This document shows, one piece after another, positions 866 to 9,160 of a stretch of DNA of 53,265 nucleotides (position 1 is the first letter of the stretch; each line of letters starts with the position of its first letter). Made by a program: the position numbers and the translations under genes. Source of the stretch: Myxococcota bacterium (lineage in GTDB: Bacteria; Myxococcota_A; UBA796; CAJQPC01); assembly GCA_036012755.1 (NCBI GenBank), contig DASCPX010000245.1, positions 1 to 53,265 of the forward strand, written 5' to 3'. The notes under the pieces are model-generated. The model saw nothing but the letters and a program-made list of their open reading frames with translations, made no database searches and had not been told where the DNA came from.

Positions 866-1285
866 TCAGGAGAAGGAGGAGGGGAACAACCGGTGGACGA
901 CCAGGTAGAGGGCCACGCCCGTGACCGAGACGTAGAGCCAGGTCGAGAGCGTCACCTTCGCCAGCCTCGGGTGCCTCTCGGGGCTGCGGAAGCCACGCCA
1001 CATCGTCGCCGCGATGAGCGGCAGCAGCACGGCGGCGAGGACGACGTGTGGCCACAACAAGAGGGAGTAGGCGACGTATGCCGGGCCGGTGGCGAGGCAG
1101 TAGGTCGTCCCCGCCTGGGCGTGGTGGACCACGTATGAGCCCAGGAAGAGCGCGGAGGTGCCCACGGCGGTGAGCATCAGCCGCTGGTGCAGCCTCTTGC
1201 GGTCGGATCGCACCGCGAACCACGCCGCGACGAGCAACAAGGCGCTGGTGGCGTTGAGGCAGGCGTTGAGGGTGGGCAGGTGCAT
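866..1285 (-). CDS. DUF420 family membrane protein (CtaM/YozB-like oxidase accessory factor)
   Basis: LPTLNACLNATSALLL...HQRLML...SALFLGSY...HVVLA...HPRLAK...WLYVSVTGV: four TM helices with the family His pattern; divergent from the cox operon. Confidence 0.9.
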   Translation of the reverse strand: MHLPTLNACLNATSALLLVAAWFAVRSDRKRLHQRLMLTAVGTSALFLGSYVVHHAQAGTTYCLATGPAYVAYSLLLWPHVVLAAVLLPLIAATMWRGFRSPERHPRLAKVTLSTWLYVSVTGVALYLVVHRLFPSSFS

Positions 1286-1346
1286 CACAGGCCCAGATAA
1301 CTGGCGCTGGCCCTGAGGCCCCCCATGCAATAGACTCCTCACCACG

Positions 1347-1374: not shown

Positions 1375-1389
1375 AATTTGACCGTGCCG

Positions 1390-2004
1390 ATGGGAATGAT
1401 GATGCTGGCTGCGCTGCTGACCGTCCTCGGGTGCGGCGAGACCCCGACGCCGGGCCTGTCCTATGGGGAGGAGTTGTTCGAGACTTGCGTGCCTTGTCAC
1501 GGGCCTGCGGGCCTCGGCAAGCCCTCCCTGGAGGCTCCCGCGATCGCGGGGCTGGAGCAGTGGTACATCGAACGGCAGCTCCTCAAATTTCAGGATGGCA
1601 GGAGAGGATCGCACCCCAACGATCTGGAGGGCCTTCGCATGCGTTCCATGGCGCGGACCCTCGAGCACGAGGGGGACATCGAGTCGGTCGCCGAGTACGC
1701 GAGCAAGCTCCCCCACGTCGATGCCGGGACGACCATCGCTGGCGACGCGGAGCGCGGCGAGTCCACCTTCATCGCTTGCGCTGCCTGTCACGCTGCAGAC
1801 GGGACGGGGAACGAAGCGCTCGGTGCTCCCTCGCTGGTGGGGCTGGACGACTGGTACGTCGTCGCCCAGCTCGAGAAGTTCGCCAGCGGTGTCCGGGGCG
1901 GAAACCCAGATGACCTCCAGGGCGTGCAGATGCGCCCGATGGCCATCGCCCTCGACGAGCAGGCCAGGCACGACCTCGCCGCCCACCTCCAGACCCTTCG
2001 CTAG
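1390..2004 (+). CDS. Dihaem cytochrome c4-like lipoprotein
   Basis: Two CxxCH motifs (CVPCH, CAACH); each domain has P.LAG...Y...QL.KF..G.RG and a distal Met; lipobox VLGC. Start may be 1390 or 1396. Confidence 0.9.
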   Translation: MGMMMLAALLTVLGCGETPTPGLSYGEELFETCVPCHGPAGLGKPSLEAPAIAGLEQWYIERQLLKFQDGRRGSHPNDLEGLRMRSMARTLEHEGDIESVAEYASKLPHVDAGTTIAGDAERGESTFIACAACHAADGTGNEALGAPSLVGLDDWYVVAQLEKFASGVRGGNPDDLQGVQMRPMAIALDEQARHDLAAHLQTLR

Positions 2005-2012
2005 GAGACGCC

Positions 2013-2120
2013 GTGCCGGACTCGAAGCAGGCCCTCGCCGACGCGCGGACGACCTACATCATCACCCTCGCGATGGCAGCTGCGTTCATCGGGGTGGTGG
2101 TCACCTTCATCCTCCTCTGA
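2013..2120 (+). CDS. 35-aa single-TM microprotein in the oxidase operon (not in the ORF track)
   Basis: GGAG at 2004-2007, GTG at 2013, MPDSKQALADARTTYIITLAMAAAFIGVVVTFILL, TGA at 2118-2120; fills the gap between cyt c4 and subunit II. Confidence 0.75.
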   Translation: MPDSKQALADARTTYIITLAMAAAFIGVVVTFILL

Positions 2121-2130
2121 GGGGCCCCAG

Positions 2131-2820
2131 ATGAACGTCATGCCGGAGCTCGCTTCGTCCTTTGCAGGCGACGTCGACTCCCTCATCTACCTCATCGCCG
2201 CCTTCGTTGGCTTCTGGTTCCTCGTCGCCCAGGGCTTCCTCTTCGGCTTCATCTTCAAGTACCGGGCCGAAGAGGGTGTCTCGGCCTCCTACATCGACGG
2301 CACCGAGAAGCACCTCAAGAAGTGGATCAACATCCCGCATGGGCTGATCATCCTCTGCGACGTCATCCTCATCGTGGGGTCCATTCGGGTCTGGTACCTC
2401 ATCAAGCAGGACCTGCCTGCCTACCCCGACTACGTCGTGCGGGTCACGGGCCAGCAGTGGGCCTGGATCTTCACGCACCCTGGCGCCGACGGGAAGCTCG
2501 ACACCGCAGACGACATCGAGATCGTCGACGAGCTGCATGTCGAGCTCGGCAAGACCTACCACTTCCAGCTCGAGTCCCGCGACGTCATCCACAGCTTCTC
2601 TGTGCCGGTCTTCCGGTTGAAGCAGGACGCAGTCCCGGGGCGCACCATCACCGGCTGGTTCGAGCCGACGAAGGTCGGCACCTACGACATCCAGTGCGCG
2701 GAGATGTGCGGCATCGGCCACGGCATCATGTGGGCGACTCTCTACGTCGAGGACGCCGAGCAGCACGCCGCCTGGGTCGCCGAGAACACCCCGACCACCG
2801 CGACGGCTCGAGCCGACTAG
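2131..2820 (+). CDS. coxB: Cytochrome c oxidase subunit II (CuA)
   Basis: Two TM helices, GQQWAW, SRDVIHSF..P...KQDAVPGR and the CuA motif CAEMCGIGHGIM. Confidence 0.95.
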   Translation: MNVMPELASSFAGDVDSLIYLIAAFVGFWFLVAQGFLFGFIFKYRAEEGVSASYIDGTEKHLKKWINIPHGLIILCDVILIVGSIRVWYLIKQDLPAYPDYVVRVTGQQWAWIFTHPGADGKLDTADDIEIVDELHVELGKTYHFQLESRDVIHSFSVPVFRLKQDAVPGRTITGWFEPTKVGTYDIQCAEMCGIGHGIMWATLYVEDAEQHAAWVAENTPTTATARAD

Positions 2821-2830
2821 GGAGGCAGAG

Positions 2831-4516
2831 ATGGCCGAAGCGGCCGAGACCAACGGGATCATGAAGTACCTGTGGTCGACCGACCACAAGGTCATCGCGT
2901 TGCAGTACCTGTTCACGGGCATGGCGATGGCCCTGGTGGGCGGCTTCATGGCCTACGCCTTCCGCATGCAGCTCGCCTTCCCGGGGTCGGACGTGCCGGG
3001 CTTCGGCGTGGTCTCTCCCGGCGAGTACAACGCCCTGGTCACCAACCACGGCACCATCATGATCTTCTGGGTCGCGATGCCCGTGCTCATCGCGGCCTTC
3101 GGGAACTTCCTCATCCCGCTGATGATCGGCGCGGACGACATGGTGTTCCCGCGCATCAACCGCCTGTCGTTCCACATCTTCTTCATCTCCGCCCTCGTCA
3201 TCCTGCTCTCCCTGTTCGTCGCTGGGGGTGGCTTCGGAGGCGCCTGGACCGCCTACCCCCCGCTGTCGTCGATGGCGGAGTACAGCCTGACGCCGCTGGG
3301 CTCGACCCTCTGGCTCCTCGGGGTGGCGCTGGAGTTCGTGGCTTTCTTGCTAGGAGGCATCAACTTCATCACCACGCTGATGAACTCCCGCGCCCCCGGG
3401 ATGAAGGCCTACGACATCCCCATCGTGGTCTGGATGATCGTCATCGCGAGCGTCCTCTTCATGCTCTCGGTCGGCCCGCTCATCGCCGGCGCGGTGATGC
3501 TGCTCTTCGACCAGGTCCTGGGCACGGGCTTCTACGACCCGACCCGCGGCGGTGATCCGATCCTCTGGCAGCACCTCTTCTGGTTCTTCGGTCACCCAGA
3601 GGTCTACGTCGTCCTGCTACCGGCGACAGGCATCGTCGCCGACATCATCACGGTCTTCGCTCGCAAGAAGCTCTTCGGGTACAAGATCGTGCTCTACACG
3701 GCGGTGGCGACGGGGGTGCTGAGCTTCTTCGTCTGGGCCCACCACCAGTTCGTCGCCGGGATCGACCCGCGGATGGCGAACGTCTTCACCGTCACGACGC
3801 TGTTGATCTCGATCCCGATCGCGGAGCTGCTCTTCGTCTACATCGCCACCCTCTACAAGGGCTCGATCCGCCTGACGACACCGATGCTCTGGGCGCTTGC
3901 CTTCATCGCCGAGTTCCTCATCGGCGGCGTCACCGGGATCTTCCTCGGCTCGTCCGGCTCGGACATCTACTTCCACGACACCTACTTCGTGCTGTCCCAC
4001 TTCCACTACACGTTCTTCCCGATCGCCATCATCGCGACCTTCGCTGGGATCACGATGTGGTTCCCGAAGATGTTCGGCCGGATGATGAACGAGACCCTGG
4101 GCAAGGTCCATTTCTGGATCACGATCGTCGCCTTCAACGGCACCTTCATCCCCCTGTTCATCCTAGGCGCGGCTGGACAGCACCGCCGGATCTACAACTA
4201 CAACCACTTCGAGGAGCTGGCCCGCCCCGAGTTCCAGGACCTCCGAGTAATCGCCACCGTCTGCACGCTCGTGATGCTCCTGGCGCAGGTCATCTTCCTC
4301 TACAACTTCTTCAAGAGCCTCGTGTCCGGGCCGGCTGCTTCGAGGAACCCCTGGGCCTCGAACACGCTCGAGTGGACGACTCCCTCTCCGCCGCCGCACG
4401 GCAACTGGCCGCGTGACGACATGCCCGTGGTCTACAGGGGTCCCTACGAGTACAGCGTGCCGGATCGCGACGCGGACTTCTGGCCACAGAACGAGCCCCC
4501 CGAGGAGGCCGCATGA
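2831..4516 (+). CDS. coxA: Heme-copper oxidase subunit I, A1-type motif, K-channel residues absent
   Basis: STDHK, TNHGTIMIF, WFFGHPEVY, WAHH, HDTYFVLSHFHY and the RR pair; all six His ligands and the cross-link Tyr are present. Confidence 0.97.
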   Translation: MAEAAETNGIMKYLWSTDHKVIALQYLFTGMAMALVGGFMAYAFRMQLAFPGSDVPGFGVVSPGEYNALVTNHGTIMIFWVAMPVLIAAFGNFLIPLMIGADDMVFPRINRLSFHIFFISALVILLSLFVAGGGFGGAWTAYPPLSSMAEYSLTPLGSTLWLLGVALEFVAFLLGGINFITTLMNSRAPGMKAYDIPIVVWMIVIASVLFMLSVGPLIAGAVMLLFDQVLGTGFYDPTRGGDPILWQHLFWFFGHPEVYVVLLPATGIVADIITVFARKKLFGYKIVLYTAVATGVLSFFVWAHHQFVAGIDPRMANVFTVTTLLISIPIAELLFVYIATLYKGSIRLTTPMLWALAFIAEFLIGGVTGIFLGSSGSDIYFHDTYFVLSHFHYTFFPIAIIATFAGITMWFPKMFGRMMNETLGKVHFWITIVAFNGTFIPLFILGAAGQHRRIYNYNHFEELARPEFQDLRVIATVCTLVMLLAQVIFLYNFFKSLVSGPAASRNPWASNTLEWTTPSPPPHGNWPRDDMPVVYRGPYEYSVPDRDADFWPQNEPPEEAA

Positions 4517-5082
4517 AGCCGCTCGCGACGACCCGCAGCGCCACTGGCATCCCCACCGGCCGCCTGGCCGTCTGGTGGGTGGTCGCCTCGGAGATCGTGA
4601 TCTTCGGTGGCCTGTTGGGCAGCTACCTCATGCATCGCCTGGGCCACCCCGAGTGGGCCGAGGCCTCCGTCCACACGAACACCTGGATCGGTGCCTTCAA
4701 CACCTTCGTCCTGTTGACGTCCAGCCTCTCGGCTGTCCTCGGTCACAAGGCGGCGGAGGCCGGAGACGGCAAGAAGGCCGCCAAGATGCTGCTGTTCACG
4801 ATGCTCGGGGGCGCCACCTTCATCTGCGTGAAGGCCTTCGAGTGGCACACCGAGATCAGCCACGGCTACACGATCACGGCCAACGCCTTCTGGTCCTTCT
4901 ACTACACGGCGGCTGGGCTCCACGCGCTCCACGTCATCGCCGGCTGCGTGATCATGGGCTTCATCGCCAGGGACGCCTGGCGGGGCAAGGAGCTCCAGCG
5001 GGTCGAGCTCATCGGCATCTACTGGCACTTCGTAGATGTCGTCTGGATCTTCCTCTTCCCCCTCCTCTACATCGCGAAGTAG
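4513..5082 (+). CDS. coxC: Cytochrome c oxidase subunit III-like (short form), copy 1
   Basis: ASEIVIFGGL, NTFVLLTSS, KAFEW, GLHALHV, YWHFVDVVWIFLFPLLY; ATGA overlap with coxA. Confidence 0.93.
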   Translation: MKPLATTRSATGIPTGRLAVWWVVASEIVIFGGLLGSYLMHRLGHPEWAEASVHTNTWIGAFNTFVLLTSSLSAVLGHKAAEAGDGKKAAKMLLFTMLGGATFICVKAFEWHTEISHGYTITANAFWSFYYTAAGLHALHVIAGCVIMGFIARDAWRGKELQRVELIGIYWHFVDVVWIFLFPLLYIAK

Positions 5083-5085
5083 GTC

Positions 5086-5808
5086 ATGTCCGGAACGCAC
5101 CACACCAACTACGTGAAGATCTGGGCCATCCTGCTCGCGCTGCTGGTCGTCAGCGTGGCGGGGCCGTTCCTCGGCATCACCATCGTCACGCTGATCACCG
5201 CCTTCGGCATCGCGGGGATCAAGGCCTACCTGGTCTGCAAGCACTTCATGCACCTGGACGTCGAGAAGCCCATCATCAAGTGGCTCCTGGCGACCTGTCT
5301 CGTGCTGATGGCGCTCTTCTTCTTCGGGACGGCCCCGGACGTGCTGCGGCACGACGGAACGAACTGGGAAAACACCGCGGCGAAGGCTGCCGTGGAGCGC
5401 GGCATCGAGGAGCCTCACCACGAGGCCCCCGCCGAGACCCCCGGTGCCGCCGAGACCCACGATGCCGTCGATACCCACGAGGCCGTCGAGGCCGTCGCTG
5501 GTGTCGACGAGGCACCGGCCGCGTTCGATCCCGCGACCGCCTACGCGACCTCCTGCAGTGCGTGCCACGGGGTGGCTGGAGCCGGCGATGGCGCCGCTGC
5601 CGTCGCGCTTCAGCCCCCGCCCGCGAACTTCGTCGATCCCGCCTTCTGGGAGACCCGCACGGACGAGCAGGTCTTCACCGCCATTCGTGACGGCGGCCCT
5701 GCGGTGGGCGGCTCTCCGCTGATGGCGCCCTGGGCCGCGAGCTTCTCCGACGAGCAGATCACCGCCCTCGTCGAGCACCTCAAGACCTTCGGTGGCCAGG
5801 ATGGCTGA
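5086..5808 (+). CDS. Oxidase subunit IV (COX4_pro-like) fused to a C-terminal monohaem cytochrome c
   Basis: YVKIWAILLALL...IKAYLVCKHFMHL with three TM helices, an acidic His-rich linker, then CSACHG..G.GDG...P.PANF...SPLMAPW. Confidence 0.88.
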   Translation: MSGTHHTNYVKIWAILLALLVVSVAGPFLGITIVTLITAFGIAGIKAYLVCKHFMHLDVEKPIIKWLLATCLVLMALFFFGTAPDVLRHDGTNWENTAAKAAVERGIEEPHHEAPAETPGAAETHDAVDTHEAVEAVAGVDEAPAAFDPATAYATSCSACHGVAGAGDGAAAVALQPPPANFVDPAFWETRTDEQVFTAIRDGGPAVGGSPLMAPWAASFSDEQITALVEHLKTFGGQDG

Positions 5809-6376
5809 GGCGATCCTCCCCGCTCCCACGCGCAAGCTGGCCCCCGATGGCGTCATCGGCATGCTGATCTTCATCTTCGCAGAGGTCATGTTCTTCGCCG
5901 GGCTCATCAGCGCCCACGTCATCGTCGAGAGCCGCGCGCTCGGAGGTGCCTGGCCCCCGGTCGGACAGCCCCGGCTCCCCTTGGAGGAGACGGCGATCAA
6001 CACGGCCCTGTTGCTGGCCAGCGGTGCGCTCGTCTTCCTCGCTCACCGCGCCCGGAGACGAAAGCTGCGGAGCGCCCCCGCCATCCTCCTCGGCGCCCTG
6101 GTCCTCGGCGTCGCCTTCGTGTCCCTGCAGGGGCGGGAGTGGGTGGCGCTCATCTCCGAGGGGCTGAGCCTCACCTCGAGCACCTACGGCGGCTTCTTCT
6201 ACCTGATCGTCGGCTCCCATGCGCTCCACGCCGTCGCCGCGATCTCGGCCCTGGGCTGGGCGACCTTCGAACTCTGGAAGGGACGGCTGCCCGACTCGGC
6301 CTTCGCGACTGTGCAGCTGTTCTGGTACTTCGTCGTGCTCGTGTGGCCGGCGATCTACGTGCAGGTGTACCTCTGA
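5801..6376 (+). CDS. Cytochrome c oxidase subunit III-like (short form), copy 2
   Basis: FAEVMFFAGLISA, WPP.GQPRLP, NTALLLASG, QGREW, GSHALHA, FWYFVVLVWP; ATG at 5801 overlaps the upstream gene end. Confidence 0.9.
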   Translation: MAEAILPAPTRKLAPDGVIGMLIFIFAEVMFFAGLISAHVIVESRALGGAWPPVGQPRLPLEETAINTALLLASGALVFLAHRARRRKLRSAPAILLGALVLGVAFVSLQGREWVALISEGLSLTSSTYGGFFYLIVGSHALHAVAAISALGWATFELWKGRLPDSAFATVQLFWYFVVLVWPAIYVQVYL

Positions 6377-6588
6377 GGCTGCACCTCCTCGTGGAGCTGG
6401 CCCAGGCCTGCTCGGTCTGCTTCGACCCCAGCGAGGAGAACCGGCTCGCCTTCCTCGGCACGACCGCGCTGCTGTCGCTCCTGCCACTGCTGCTCCTCGC
6501 CGGCTCCGGGCTGTGGATCTGGAGACGAGTGCGCCAGGGCAACGACGCGGGCGCGGGATACCCTCCACCAGATGCCGCAGTCGAATGA
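6373..6588 (+). CDS. Small CxxC + single-TM protein ending the oxidase operon
   Basis: (L)RLHLLVELAQACSVCFDPSEENRLAFLGTTALLSLLPLLLLAGSGLWIWRRVRQ...; start is CTG at 6373 (CTGA overlap with the upstream stop) or GTG at 6391. Confidence 0.65.
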   Translation: MRLHLLVELAQACSVCFDPSEENRLAFLGTTALLSLLPLLLLAGSGLWIWRRVRQGNDAGAGYPPPDAAVE

Positions 6589-9160
6589 TGATGTCGCGCG
6601 CAGCTTCGCCGACCAACACGGGCTGAAGGATTCGGTCCACCAGGCGCTGTCGAAGCTCCTGAAGCAGCTGGATGCGGATGACGCGCCCCCTCCCCGGCGC
6701 AGGCGACGACGGATAGCCCTCCCCGAGCCGGATCCGGGCGCGCGGGATCGCTACGAGGACCTCGGCGTCATCGGGCAGGGCGGCATGGGCGAGGTCCGGC
6801 GGGTTCGCGACCGTGATCTGGGCCGTGTCTGCGCCATGAAGATCATCAGGGAGGAGTTCCTGGTCAACGAGGAGTTCGTCGCCCGCTTCATCGAGGAGGC
6901 CCAGGCCACCGCCCAGCTCGACCATCCCGGCATCGTCCCGGTCCTGGAACTCGGGCGCCTGCCGGACGGACGCCTCTACTTCACGATGCAGGAGGTGCGG
7001 GGCGACACCTTCGGCACCGTGATCAAGGCGCTCCACATCAGCTCCGACCAGGGCGGCTGGGGGAGCATCCAGGGTTGGACCTTCCGGCGGGCGGTCGACG
7101 CCTTCCACACCGCCTGCGAAGCCGTCGCCTACGCCCACTCCAGAGGCGTGATCCACCGGGACATCAAGCCCGCCAACATCATGGTCGGTGCCTTCGGCGA
7201 GGTGCAGGTGATGGACTGGGGCCTCGCCAAGGTGATCGATCGCCACGGCAAGGCCGAGGAGGGTCGGCTGGGTCCGGTCTCCACCGCACGCTCGGTGGAC
7301 CTCACGCGGGCGACGCTCGTGGGGACCGTCGCCGGGACGCCCTGGTACATGTCGCCGGAGCAGGCCAGCGGGCAGGTCTACAAGCTCGGTCCGCCAGCCG
7401 ACGTCTATTCCCTCGGGGCCGTGCTGTATTCCCTCCTGTGCGGTCGCCCGCCCTACGAGGGCAAGGTGGGCAGCGAGGTCCTGGAGAAGGTCAAGACCGA
7501 GCCCTGCATCCCGCTGTCGATCCGCCAGACGCCGCCGCTTCCAGAGGGTCTCGTCGAGATCTGCGAGCGCGCCATGAGGCTCGACGACCAGGCGCGCTAC
7601 CCGACCGCCCAGGGGCTCGCCCAGGCTGTCGCCGCCTGGCTCGACGGCGAGCGCAAGCTGGCTCAGGCACAAGGCGTCGTCGAGCGCGCGGAGGGCCTTG
7701 GACCCCGGGTGGACCAGTGGAAGGGGATGGCCGCTGACCTTCGAGGAGAAGCAGACCGTATCCTCGCCGGCGTGGAGCCCTGGCGCCCGGCAGAGGACAA
7801 GCAGCGAGCCTGGCGCCTCCAGGACGAAGCGGAGGAGCTGGAGCGCCAGATCGAGCGGGAGAAGCTGGAGGTCACCCAGACACTCCACGCGGCCCTCACG
7901 ATCGCGCCCGACCTCGCCACCGCCCACGCGCTGTTGGCCGAGCGCTATCGCGAGGAGCACGAGCTGGCTGAGCGCCAGCGGGACTCGAGGGACGCCGCCA
8001 GGGCGGAGGCCAACCTGCGCGCCCACGCCCTCGCGCTCCCCGAGAGTCACGCGGCCCGCCGGGACCACCTCGAGTACCTGCGGGGTGATGGCCGCCTCAC
8101 CCTGTTGACCGATCCCCCTGCGGCGCGAGTCACGCTCTATGCCTTCGACCGGCGCGCCAGGCACCTGACGCCGAAGCTGTGCTCCGATCCCGGCGAGACA
8201 CCGCTGGTGGACGTCAGCCTCCCGATGGGCTCCTATCTATGTGAGATCGTTCGGGACGGACGACCTGTTGTGCTCTATCCCTTCGCCCTCGGTCGCCAGG
8301 AGCACCACGACGCGGTGCCACCAGGATGCAGCGACACCCACCGAGTGCACCTCCCGGCGGCGCTGTCCGAGGACGACTGCTACGTGCCAGCGGGTTGGTT
8401 CTGGTCCGGCGGGGACGACGAGGCCCTCGACCCGCTGCCCCGACGCCGCCTCTGGTGCGAGGGCTTCGTGATGAAGCGCGATCCGGTCACCAATCGCCAG
8501 TATCTCGAGTTCCTCAATGCCCTGCTGTCGGCCGGACAACGGCAGCGAGCTGTGGGCTACGCGCCACACGAGATGGGCAAGGACGACGAGGCTGGCCTGC
8601 TCATCTATGGGCTCGGCCCCCGGGGATTCGAGCTCGTCCCAGACAAGGACGGCGACATCTGGGACCTCGACTGGCCCGTGTTCAACGTCGACGCGGAGGG
8701 CGCTCGGGCCTACGCGAGCTGGCTCGCCGCCAGGGACGACCTCCCCTGGCGCCTTCCGGCGGAGCTCGAGTGGGAGAAGGCAGCCCGTGGGGTCGATGGT
8801 CGCTTCTTCCCCTGGGGCGACCAGCTCGATCCCAGCTGGTGTTGCATGCGCGAGTCCCACGCCCAGCGCCCCCTGCCTGCGAAGGTCGACGCCTTCCCGG
8901 CGGACCTCTCGCCCTACGGTGTGCGCGGTCTCGGCGGCAACGTGCGGGACCTCTGCGGGGACGTCTTCTTGAAGGAGGGGCCGCCCGTGGACCAGCGCGT
9001 CGGAGCTCCGGTGGCCCCTGGCTCGGGTGACCGTCTCGTCGCTCGCGGCGGGCGGTGGAGCGGGCACGCCCGCTCGGCGAGGACCTGCAGCAGGAGCGGC
9101 GTCGCGCCCTCGGCTCGGCTCTCCAACCTCGGCTTCCGCCTCGCCAGGAGCGAGCCATGA
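6572..9160 (+). CDS. Hanks-type Ser/Thr protein kinase with a C-terminal FGE-sulfatase (SUMF1-like) domain
   Basis: GQGGMGEV, AMK, HRDIKPAN, DWGLAK, GTPWYMSPEQ; C-terminal PVTNRQY, RLPAELEWEKAARG, SPYGVRGLGGNV, LGFRLAR. Confidence 0.95.
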   Translation: MPQSNDDVARSFADQHGLKDSVHQALSKLLKQLDADDAPPPRRRRRRIALPEPDPGARDRYEDLGVIGQGGMGEVRRVRDRDLGRVCAMKIIREEFLVNEEFVARFIEEAQATAQLDHPGIVPVLELGRLPDGRLYFTMQEVRGDTFGTVIKALHISSDQGGWGSIQGWTFRRAVDAFHTACEAVAYAHSRGVIHRDIKPANIMVGAFGEVQVMDWGLAKVIDRHGKAEEGRLGPVSTARSVDLTRATLVGTVAGTPWYMSPEQASGQVYKLGPPADVYSLGAVLYSLLCGRPPYEGKVGSEVLEKVKTEPCIPLSIRQTPPLPEGLVEICERAMRLDDQARYPTAQGLAQAVAAWLDGERKLAQAQGVVERAEGLGPRVDQWKGMAADLRGEADRILAGVEPWRPAEDKQRAWRLQDEAEELERQIEREKLEVTQTLHAALTIAPDLATAHALLAERYREEHELAERQRDSRDAARAEANLRAHALALPESHAARRDHLEYLRGDGRLTLLTDPPAARVTLYAFDRRARHLTPKLCSDPGETPLVDVSLPMGSYLCEIVRDGRPVVLYPFALGRQEHHDAVPPGCSDTHRVHLPAALSEDDCYVPAGWFWSGGDDEALDPLPRRRLWCEGFVMKRDPVTNRQYLEFLNALLSAGQRQRAVGYAPHEMGKDDEAGLLIYGLGPRGFELVPDKDGDIWDLDWPVFNVDAEGARAYASWLAARDDLPWRLPAELEWEKAARGVDGRFFPWGDQLDPSWCCMRESHAQRPLPAKVDAFPADLSPYGVRGLGGNVRDLCGDVFLKEGPPVDQRVGAPVAPGSGDRLVARGGRWSGHARSARTCSRSGVAPSARLSNLGFRLARSEP

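Follow-up and report, generated by a model that had tools for sequence, protein, structure and literature searches.

We describe a haem-copper oxidase, derived from the A1 type, in which both subunits I and II have lost the K-channel and in which the catalytic site and the core of the D-channel are kept. It is encoded by an operon in contig DASCPX010000245.1 of a Myxococcota bacterium (assembly GCA_036012755.1); the window is the whole stretch of DNA that was analysed, 53,265 nucleotides in length. Loss of the K-channel is a trait of an entire clade and is due neither to chance nor to error. Lysine loss as such is not new; it is the set of residues E332, H70 and D77 at the contact of subunits I and II, the E168 type of D-channel, the stepwise sister lineages and the genomes in which this is the sole oxidase that make the mechanism testable.

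The need for a second (K) channel, and the part played by its lysine as either proton carrier or dielectric well, is an old question (PMC7196763), and the canonical role of the channel is set out in PMC8361435 and PMC7196763. The question has so far been studied with crippling mutants. The clade provides a natural K362L/M and T359I enzyme, which appears to support aerobic life alone and is present in 28% of the sampled genomes of the window's phylum, with sister lineages supplying graded intermediates; the operon, often encoding the sole terminal oxidase found in its host, is thus a natural test of why the lysine is normally essential. If the ratio of protons to electrons differs from that of canonical A enzymes, many uncultured aerobes have been credited with the wrong energy yield on the strength of an 'A-family' annotation. 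If the two-subunit relay proposed below is real, it would be an arrangement of the proton route that has not been described for haem-copper oxidases, and it would reveal the real purpose of the lysine.

Channel residues of subunits I and II

Numbering for both channels was set on E. coli CyoB and CyoA (NC_000913); R. sphaeroides numbers under 284 were assigned by offset. The features concerned are:

2131..2820 (+): subunit II, 229 amino acids, with the CuA ligands H154, C189, E191, C193, H197 and M200
2831..4516 (+): subunit I, A1-derived, 561 amino acids, with six His ligands, E257, Y259, D378/H382 and R452/R453
3332..3346 (+): remodelled upper D-channel, E168 (3332) with A171 and F172 replacing the serine pair
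3698..3712 (+): T290 and T294 of helix VII, two polar residues below S298 that are specific to the clade
3809..3841 (+): helix VIII, from which the K-channel residues are missing: S327 (3809), I330, E332 (3824), L333, V336
3911..3913 (+): E361, a second buried Glu, in helix IX (111/116 homologues)

Subunit I matches solved A-family chains with an E-value of about 1e-121, and its helix VIII aligns to them without a gap. Set against CyoB, T359 corresponds to I330, V361 to E332, K362 to L333, N365 to V336, S299 to A270 and E300 to D271; the entry Glu of subunit II, CyoA E89, aligns with L62. An earlier note on this DNA had proposed K362L, T359I, S299A and the further helix VIII substitutions, and the alignment bears these out, Lys and Thr being absent from the K-channel positions; it had also placed the two subunits and the codons of H255 (3593) and S327 (3809) correctly.

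A homologue search with subunit I scored 8000 candidates, the best 120 of which are 78-100% identical to the window protein. Four near-identical copies of that protein were excluded, and the counts given here are over the remaining 116 homologues (P0005-P0120) for subunit I and over 119 homologues for subunit II. From a wider set of 383 aligned subunit I sequences, 339 passed coverage and ligand filters; 141 of these, outside the clade, bear the lysine. Position 333 (K362) is Leu in 85, Met in 29 and Val in 2 of the 116 homologues, and Lys in none; position 330 (T359) is Ile in 102, Val in 13 and Leu in 1. Met stands at the K362 position in 53 of 142 clade sequences. Misalignment as the cause of the missing channel is ruled out by the gap-free helix VIII alignment and the conservation among homologues. 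E332, which the earlier note had picked out as a new Glu one residue before the lysine position, is invariant (116/116), as are Q306, S327, T394 and P397. No acid occurs at residues 329-335 in any of the 141 Lys-bearing relatives, and Ser at 327 is found in 2 of them, against 36 of 55 other Lys-less sequences. T290 (115/116) and T294 (116/116) occupy positions that are Ala/Ser and Ile in the Lys-bearing relatives.

P69, H70 (codon 2338) and D77 (2359) of subunit II are invariant (119/119), H70 and D77 lying in the second transmembrane helix (TM2), which is about four residues longer than in Lys-bearing relatives; E59 is present in 111/119. A subunit II lacking its entry Glu and carrying a His and an Asp in TM2 is what had been claimed, and the idea of a coordinated loss in both subunits is likewise supported. 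Co-conservation held for E332 with H70 and D77 and failed for the helix VI pair: the supposedly new Thr (T266) is private (1/116), and D or E at position 300 (D271, described as H300D) is ordinary, occurring in 85 of the 141 Lys-bearing relatives. T266 and D271 were consequently dropped as signature residues.

The core of the D-channel (D132, N121, N139, N207 and E286) survives, as does the cross-linking Y288, in line with the retention that had been claimed. In CyoB terms D135 is D103, N124 is N92, N142 is N110, E286 is E257 and Y288 is Y259, with R481/R482 (R452/R453) and D378/H382 also kept; D103, N92, N110, N178 and E257 are each found in 116/116, the last being the helix VI Glu that, in place of a Tyr-Ser pair, marks the A1 subtype. 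All six His ligands (H73, H255, H304, H305, H390 and H392) and the cross-linking Y259 are present, and a CuA-type subunit II and a subunit III are both encoded, as expected for family A. A single-chain model of subunit I (pLDDT 68.6) superposes on R. sphaeroides aa3 with a Z of 39.8 and an rmsd of 2.9 over 500 aligned residues.

The D-channel is not, however, the intact one that the earlier note described. The serine pair is replaced by A171 and F172, and E168 and D102 are new, each of the four being found in 116/116; the serine-pair positions carry Ser in 108 and 128 of the 141 Lys-bearing relatives, and Glu at 168 occurs in fewer than 5% of them. Because S200/S201 form a proton-holding serine zone before E286 (bioRxiv 10.1101/040717), we read their replacement as a functional change; the new Glu lies one turn away from the serine-pair positions.

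Descent of the clade and its host genomes

Named carriers belong to the Gemmatimonadota, Myxococcota, Bdellovibrionota and Eisenbacteria, with one Verrucomicrobiota record. Two Lys-less operons, of the clade and of its neighbour, are titled Klebsiella pneumoniae (L011) and Enterobacteriaceae (L070), titles or bins that may be wrong. The main tree comprises 80 rows hand-picked from the 383 (IQ-TREE quick, LG+G4, SH-aLRT only, 16 signature columns removed); its ingroup is A-family only, without a B or C outgroup, and its root was imposed on canonical alphaproteobacterial-type rows. The clade falls within family A, inside a 49-row clade (SH-aLRT 99) with Lys-bearing A enzymes that include the annotated CoxN. 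Its 14-row group (99) joins loci L124-L126 (98), then L019 (100), then a Lys-less clade of Verrucomicrobia/Acidobacteria type (94), and a FastTree analysis of 202 rows agrees.

The lysine changes at least five times on the 80-row tree. Under the imposed root the changes run from loss of the lysine and of S299 together with S327, through D77 of subunit II and then E168/A171/F172, to E332 and H70. E332 arose after the lysine was lost and is therefore not a one-step substitute for K362; nor did remodelling of the D-channel first permit the loss, for the serine pair is still present in the Lys-less clade of Verrucomicrobia type. Further Lys-less A-family groups were seen in a representative search (P0172, P0256; P0167, P0191, P0166 and relatives): they show Trp where E286 would stand, and Gln or His in place of K362 together with changes to the Asn residues of the D-channel. 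An A-family paralogue at L021:6929-8683, which has no K362 and in which two CuB His have become Gln, is probably not an oxygen reductase.

Host genomes were surveyed in a sample of 151 genomes from the window's phylum (completeness filter 90%), with clade membership taken as at least 71% identity and the signature residues checked for the window's own genome and nine relatives. An A-type match is present in 118 of the 151 and a match at or above that identity in 42, two of them partial; in 34 of these 42 it is the sole A-family subunit I. Gene content was counted over 48 carriers, among which kin are not independent. Twelve (G008, G010, G027, G055, G072, G086, G116, G129, G139, G162, G166 and G172) yielded one COX1-family match each and no bd oxidase; three of these are rated 100% complete and one is in 2 contigs. 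The haem a synthase CtaA is encoded in 46/48 carriers, which favours a haem a content, and in G023 ctaA and ctaB lie directly upstream of the operon. On this count, and on that of CtaB, which is over its cut-off in 9 of the 10 clade carriers among the relatives, we rejected the idea that T359 was lost because the enzyme uses haem b only (bb3). From catalytic residues and genome context we infer that the enzyme is very probably a haem a-containing cytochrome c oxidase reducing O2 to water.

The window's own genome (96% complete) encodes ctaA-ctaB, genes like those of alternative complex III (ACIII), a bc1 cytochrome b and one CuA protein. No bd oxidase and no nirK, nirS or nosZ were found in it, and a search for AOX, which had no positive control, found nothing. 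It also holds a second COX1-fold gene (L002:1282-2697, - strand) with a mono-haem cytochrome c gene upstream (L164:8260-8667, - strand; G000:C70), a NorCB-like layout. By eye, its helix VI His/Tyr motif is unrecognisable and Met stands for the second helix X His, a haem ligand; it may belong to the putative N2O-reductase family of PMC11214002. A second O2 reductase in this genome was rejected, given the lack of bd, the single CuA protein and the state of the L002 product. In another bin a COX1 match with nine internal TGA codons (G098:C185) probably represents an organellar contig.

The subunit interface and the supply of protons

A model of the complex of subunits I and II scored 0.79 (best control 0.00), with contact agreement of at least 98% and partner pLDDT of at least 82; the score mark is reached by 116 of 157 solved pairs and by 2 of 215 mismatched pairs, and the score probably stems from the likeness of this textbook pair to solved oxidases. 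The modelled interface comprises residues 324-325, 327-328, 331-332 and 334-336 of subunit I and 62, 65-66, 69-70, 73-74, 77 and 80-81 of subunit II, contact pairs including 320/321 of subunit I with 81 of subunit II; E361, T290 and T294 are not in this list. By register, E332 would meet H70.

Pairing the subunits of 44 Lys-less and 65 Lys-bearing operons, we scored ionisable residues at positions 331-332 of subunit I or 66-78 of subunit II and found one in 43/44 of the former against 0/65 of the latter, the lone Lys-less exception having lost two His ligands. The residues vary by lineage: a mid-TM2 Glu in the Verrucomicrobia type, E331 with D77 in L127 (G009:C7) and L128 (G017:C94), and E332, H70 and D77 here. 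L127 and L128, whose Glu lies at the G360 position, form a separate A1 lineage with its own loss of the lysine. In G017 weak cytochrome bd-like matches share the contig, as they do beside a second match (residues not read) in G006:C3. A further clade operon, L013 (Puniceicoccaceae bacterium K14, 6202-8662), from a record whose title names a strain, has Ile in place of E332, Ser and Leu where T290 and T294 would be, and at position 67 of subunit II a Glu that is a candidate natural compensation for the lost E332.

We propose that electrons would pass from alternative complex III or bc1 to the di-haem cytochrome c of the operon and on, through CuA and the low-spin haem, to the haem/CuB/His-Tyr site. 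The lumen of the former K-channel would be filled by L333, I330, A270 and V336, and protons for the reductive half-cycle, which normally use that channel, would take a replacement route where helix VIII touches TM2 of subunit II: from the cytoplasmic side, perhaps by way of subunit II E59, to the E332-H70 pair, S327, the haem farnesyl hydroxyl and Y259, possibly assisted by T290 and T294. A terminus at S327 and the haem hydroxyl, close to Y259, is suggested by the geometry of T359, the farnesyl group and the Tyr. Pumped and oxidative-phase protons would use the remodelled D-channel. To a replacement route at this contact we give a little less than an even chance; its specific form, a widespread main respiratory oxidase in which a new E332-H70 relay feeds S327 and the cross-linked Tyr in place of the K-channel, with contact acids gained more than once upon loss of K362, is put forward more tentatively.

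Several observations weigh against this proposal. The E332-H70 contact is not among the 25 contact pairs listed for the complex model, E332 lies some 200 degrees from the T359 face, and it may serve in a structural ion pair. TM2 carries basic residues at its cytoplasmic end (K63 in 110/119, R/K64 in 112/119), which is unfavourable for proton entry. The nearest sisters, L019 and L124-L126, have neither K362 nor E332/H70, D77 alone being retained; a Lys-less enzyme can therefore do without the pair. The correlation between lysine loss and interface charge rests on two independent losses with paired subunits, which is few events. As to physiology, oxidase operons can drop out of assemblies, and one genome (G014, 96%) has CtaA and no strong COX1-family or bd match.

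A rewired supply and one by the D-channel alone, both raised in the earlier note, remain the live options. The latter, which we consider rather unlikely, would route every proton, chemical or pumped, through the remodelled D-channel (entry at D102/D103, E168 near E257, A171/F172), with E332-H70 and D77 just anchoring subunit II and pumping perhaps lower. It accords with the invariance of E168, A171 and F172, which arose after the lysine was lost and one branch before E332, with the functional change implied by replacement of the serine zone (bioRxiv 10.1101/040717), and with the sisters that have no E332/H70, one of which is the sole COX1-family match over cut-off in G013. It sits badly, however, with the serine pair retained in the Verrucomicrobia-type Lys-less clade, with the buried interface charges, which come back in Lys-less operons but in no Lys-bearing one, and with the impaired turnover of K-channel mutants in studied enzymes, yeast T316K having 15% of wild type (PMC7196763). 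Uptake of part of the chemical protons from the outer side, via D77, H70 and E332, would forgo charge separation for those steps. D77 is older than E332 and H70 and lies on the outer half of TM2, the three residues line one interface and the inner end of TM2 is basic; such a chain nevertheless risks a leak, and poor coupling is hard to reconcile with an enzyme that in most carriers stands in for the main high-yield A-type oxidase. We consider this reading improbable.

A different chemistry or ion (an NO reductase, a peroxidase, or a Na+-coupled pump using E332/E361) we regard as very improbable. Q306 and two buried Glu are new, and mutants that have lost the K-channel keep their peroxidase activity; against this, the cross-linking Tyr and the three CuB His are invariant, and nirK or nirS-like genes occur in just 14/48 carriers and in 1/12 sole-oxidase genomes. 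The genome context thus argues against the altered chemistry suggested earlier, be it with NO or peroxide, and the NO reductase families are without the Tyr (PMC11214002). Least probable by far is a degenerate or non-functional paralogue: scores do fall under the curated cut-offs of TIGR02866 and of the NCBIfam CtaD_CoxA equivalog TIGR02891 (599.4 vs 670.75 bits), but the proteins are 71-80% identical across several phyla, the complete operon is conserved and under purifying selection, and the enzyme is the sole A-type one in most carriers.

The operon and its relation to known oxidases

The other genes in and beside the operon are:

866..1345 (-): DUF420 membrane protein (Pfam PF04238, E 4.8e-32), divergent, start codon uncertain
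1378..2004 (+): di-haem cytochrome c (PF00034, two stretches); the start may lie a few codons later
2013..2120 (+): 35-amino-acid, single-helix open reading frame (ORF) that has a Shine-Dalgarno-like site
4513..5082 (+): subunit III, first short copy; NCBIfam CtaE/CyoC/QoxC matches under cut-off
5086..5808 (+): subunit IV, with a mono-haem cytochrome c fused to its C-terminus (TIGR02229 over cut-off; PF03626, PF13442)
5792..6376 (+): subunit III, second short copy
6373..6588 (+): small membrane protein with Cys-x-x-Cys and one helix, start uncertain

The order cytochrome c, II, I, III, IV, III is conserved across the clade loci, and rough pN values of 0.12-0.15 against pS of 0.50-0.70 (pN about a quarter of pS) were obtained in 4/4 comparisons. 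The di-haem cytochrome c, the probable electron donor to CuA, lies upstream of subunit II in 15/15 loci L003-L017 and also in L157-L161. In 11 of the 12 clade loci examined an ORF similar to the 35-residue one separates the cytochrome c gene from that of subunit II, and it probably encodes a small subunit; it is reminiscent of subunit IIa of B-type oxidases, yet subunit II here has both helices. Subunit IV is unfused in many clade members. The Cys-x-x-Cys ORF closes the operon, and 13 of the 14 clade loci that were examined have a similar one after their second subunit III; its product, for which no Pfam match was found for the residues tested, is possibly a copper or assembly factor. DUF420 homologues lie near many related A-family oxidase operons. 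Directly after the operon, a Ser/Thr kinase (6572-9160, +), whose C-terminal domain matches EgtB/GldK-type models, did not show up as a conserved neighbour. Subunits I and III of one clade operon (L026:6920-8640) are frameshifted in several places, which probably reflects sequencing errors.

With canonical A1 aa3 enzymes (R. sphaeroides 1M56/3OM3, P. denitrificans, mycobacterial aa3) and E. coli bo3, at 36-41% identity, the clade shares the fold, the six His, E286, Y288, D132/N121/N139/N207, the Mg-site residues, the Arg pair and a CuA subunit II. Unlike them it has no K362, T359, S299 or subunit II entry Glu, its serine pair is replaced, and E168, D102, T290, T294, Q306, S327, E332, E361, T394, P397 and subunit II H70/D77 are its own. 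PMC11214002 defines family A by two channels and the NO reductases (c/q/b/e/s/g/nNOR) by loss of the active-site Tyr. Judged by its residues the clade is an A1-derived variant and not a canonical A-family member, since the K-channel is missing; Y259 being invariant, it does not fall among the NO reductases either. B-family ba3 enzymes have no D-channel, whereas the window protein has its core, and ba3 chains match at an E of 1e-11 vs 1e-121 for A.

CoxMNOP or subtype a-III (annotated CoxN of AP024104), 46% identical and on the same large A-family branch, likewise has two short subunit III genes and a subunit IV, and the subunit III doublet by which the a-III operon is defined (PMC6431628) is found in the clade. 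CoxN, however, keeps S299, T359, K362 and the entry Glu, all lost here, the gene order differs, and the K-channel ascribed to a-III in PMC8239418 Table S1 is absent.

As the earlier note had cautioned, many Lys-less A-family COX1 are already tabulated, in PMC8239418 (Tables S1 and S7) and bioRxiv 10.1101/2020.03.01.968255, the A1 proteins among them including Elusimicrobia, HR19, Methylacidiphilum and Bacteriovorax. The 'KC-channel', 'hybrid' and 'modified' COX1 of Degli Esposti et al. similarly have no Lys, usually no subunit II Glu, and a D-channel core that is kept. Among the listed rows of PMC8239418, those of Elusimicrobia match the residue pattern of the neighbouring clade L049, L054 and L070 and that of HR19 resembles L124; none has Ile at T351 with the pattern of the present clade, a comparison by tabulated residues and not by alignment. 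Columns for E332, E361, E168, H70 and D77 are absent from that table. Literature searches, which mostly did not cover subscription journals, found no account of this clade. The Lys-less group of acidophiles is described there as deep-branching, whereas the present clade sits within a group of Lys-bearing enzymes. R. sphaeroides K362M (PDB 3OM3) has a hydrophobic residue at position 362, as the clade does, but it is an inhibited single substitution (by a title cited in PMC8361435), whereas in the clade about a dozen co-fixed changes stand alongside.

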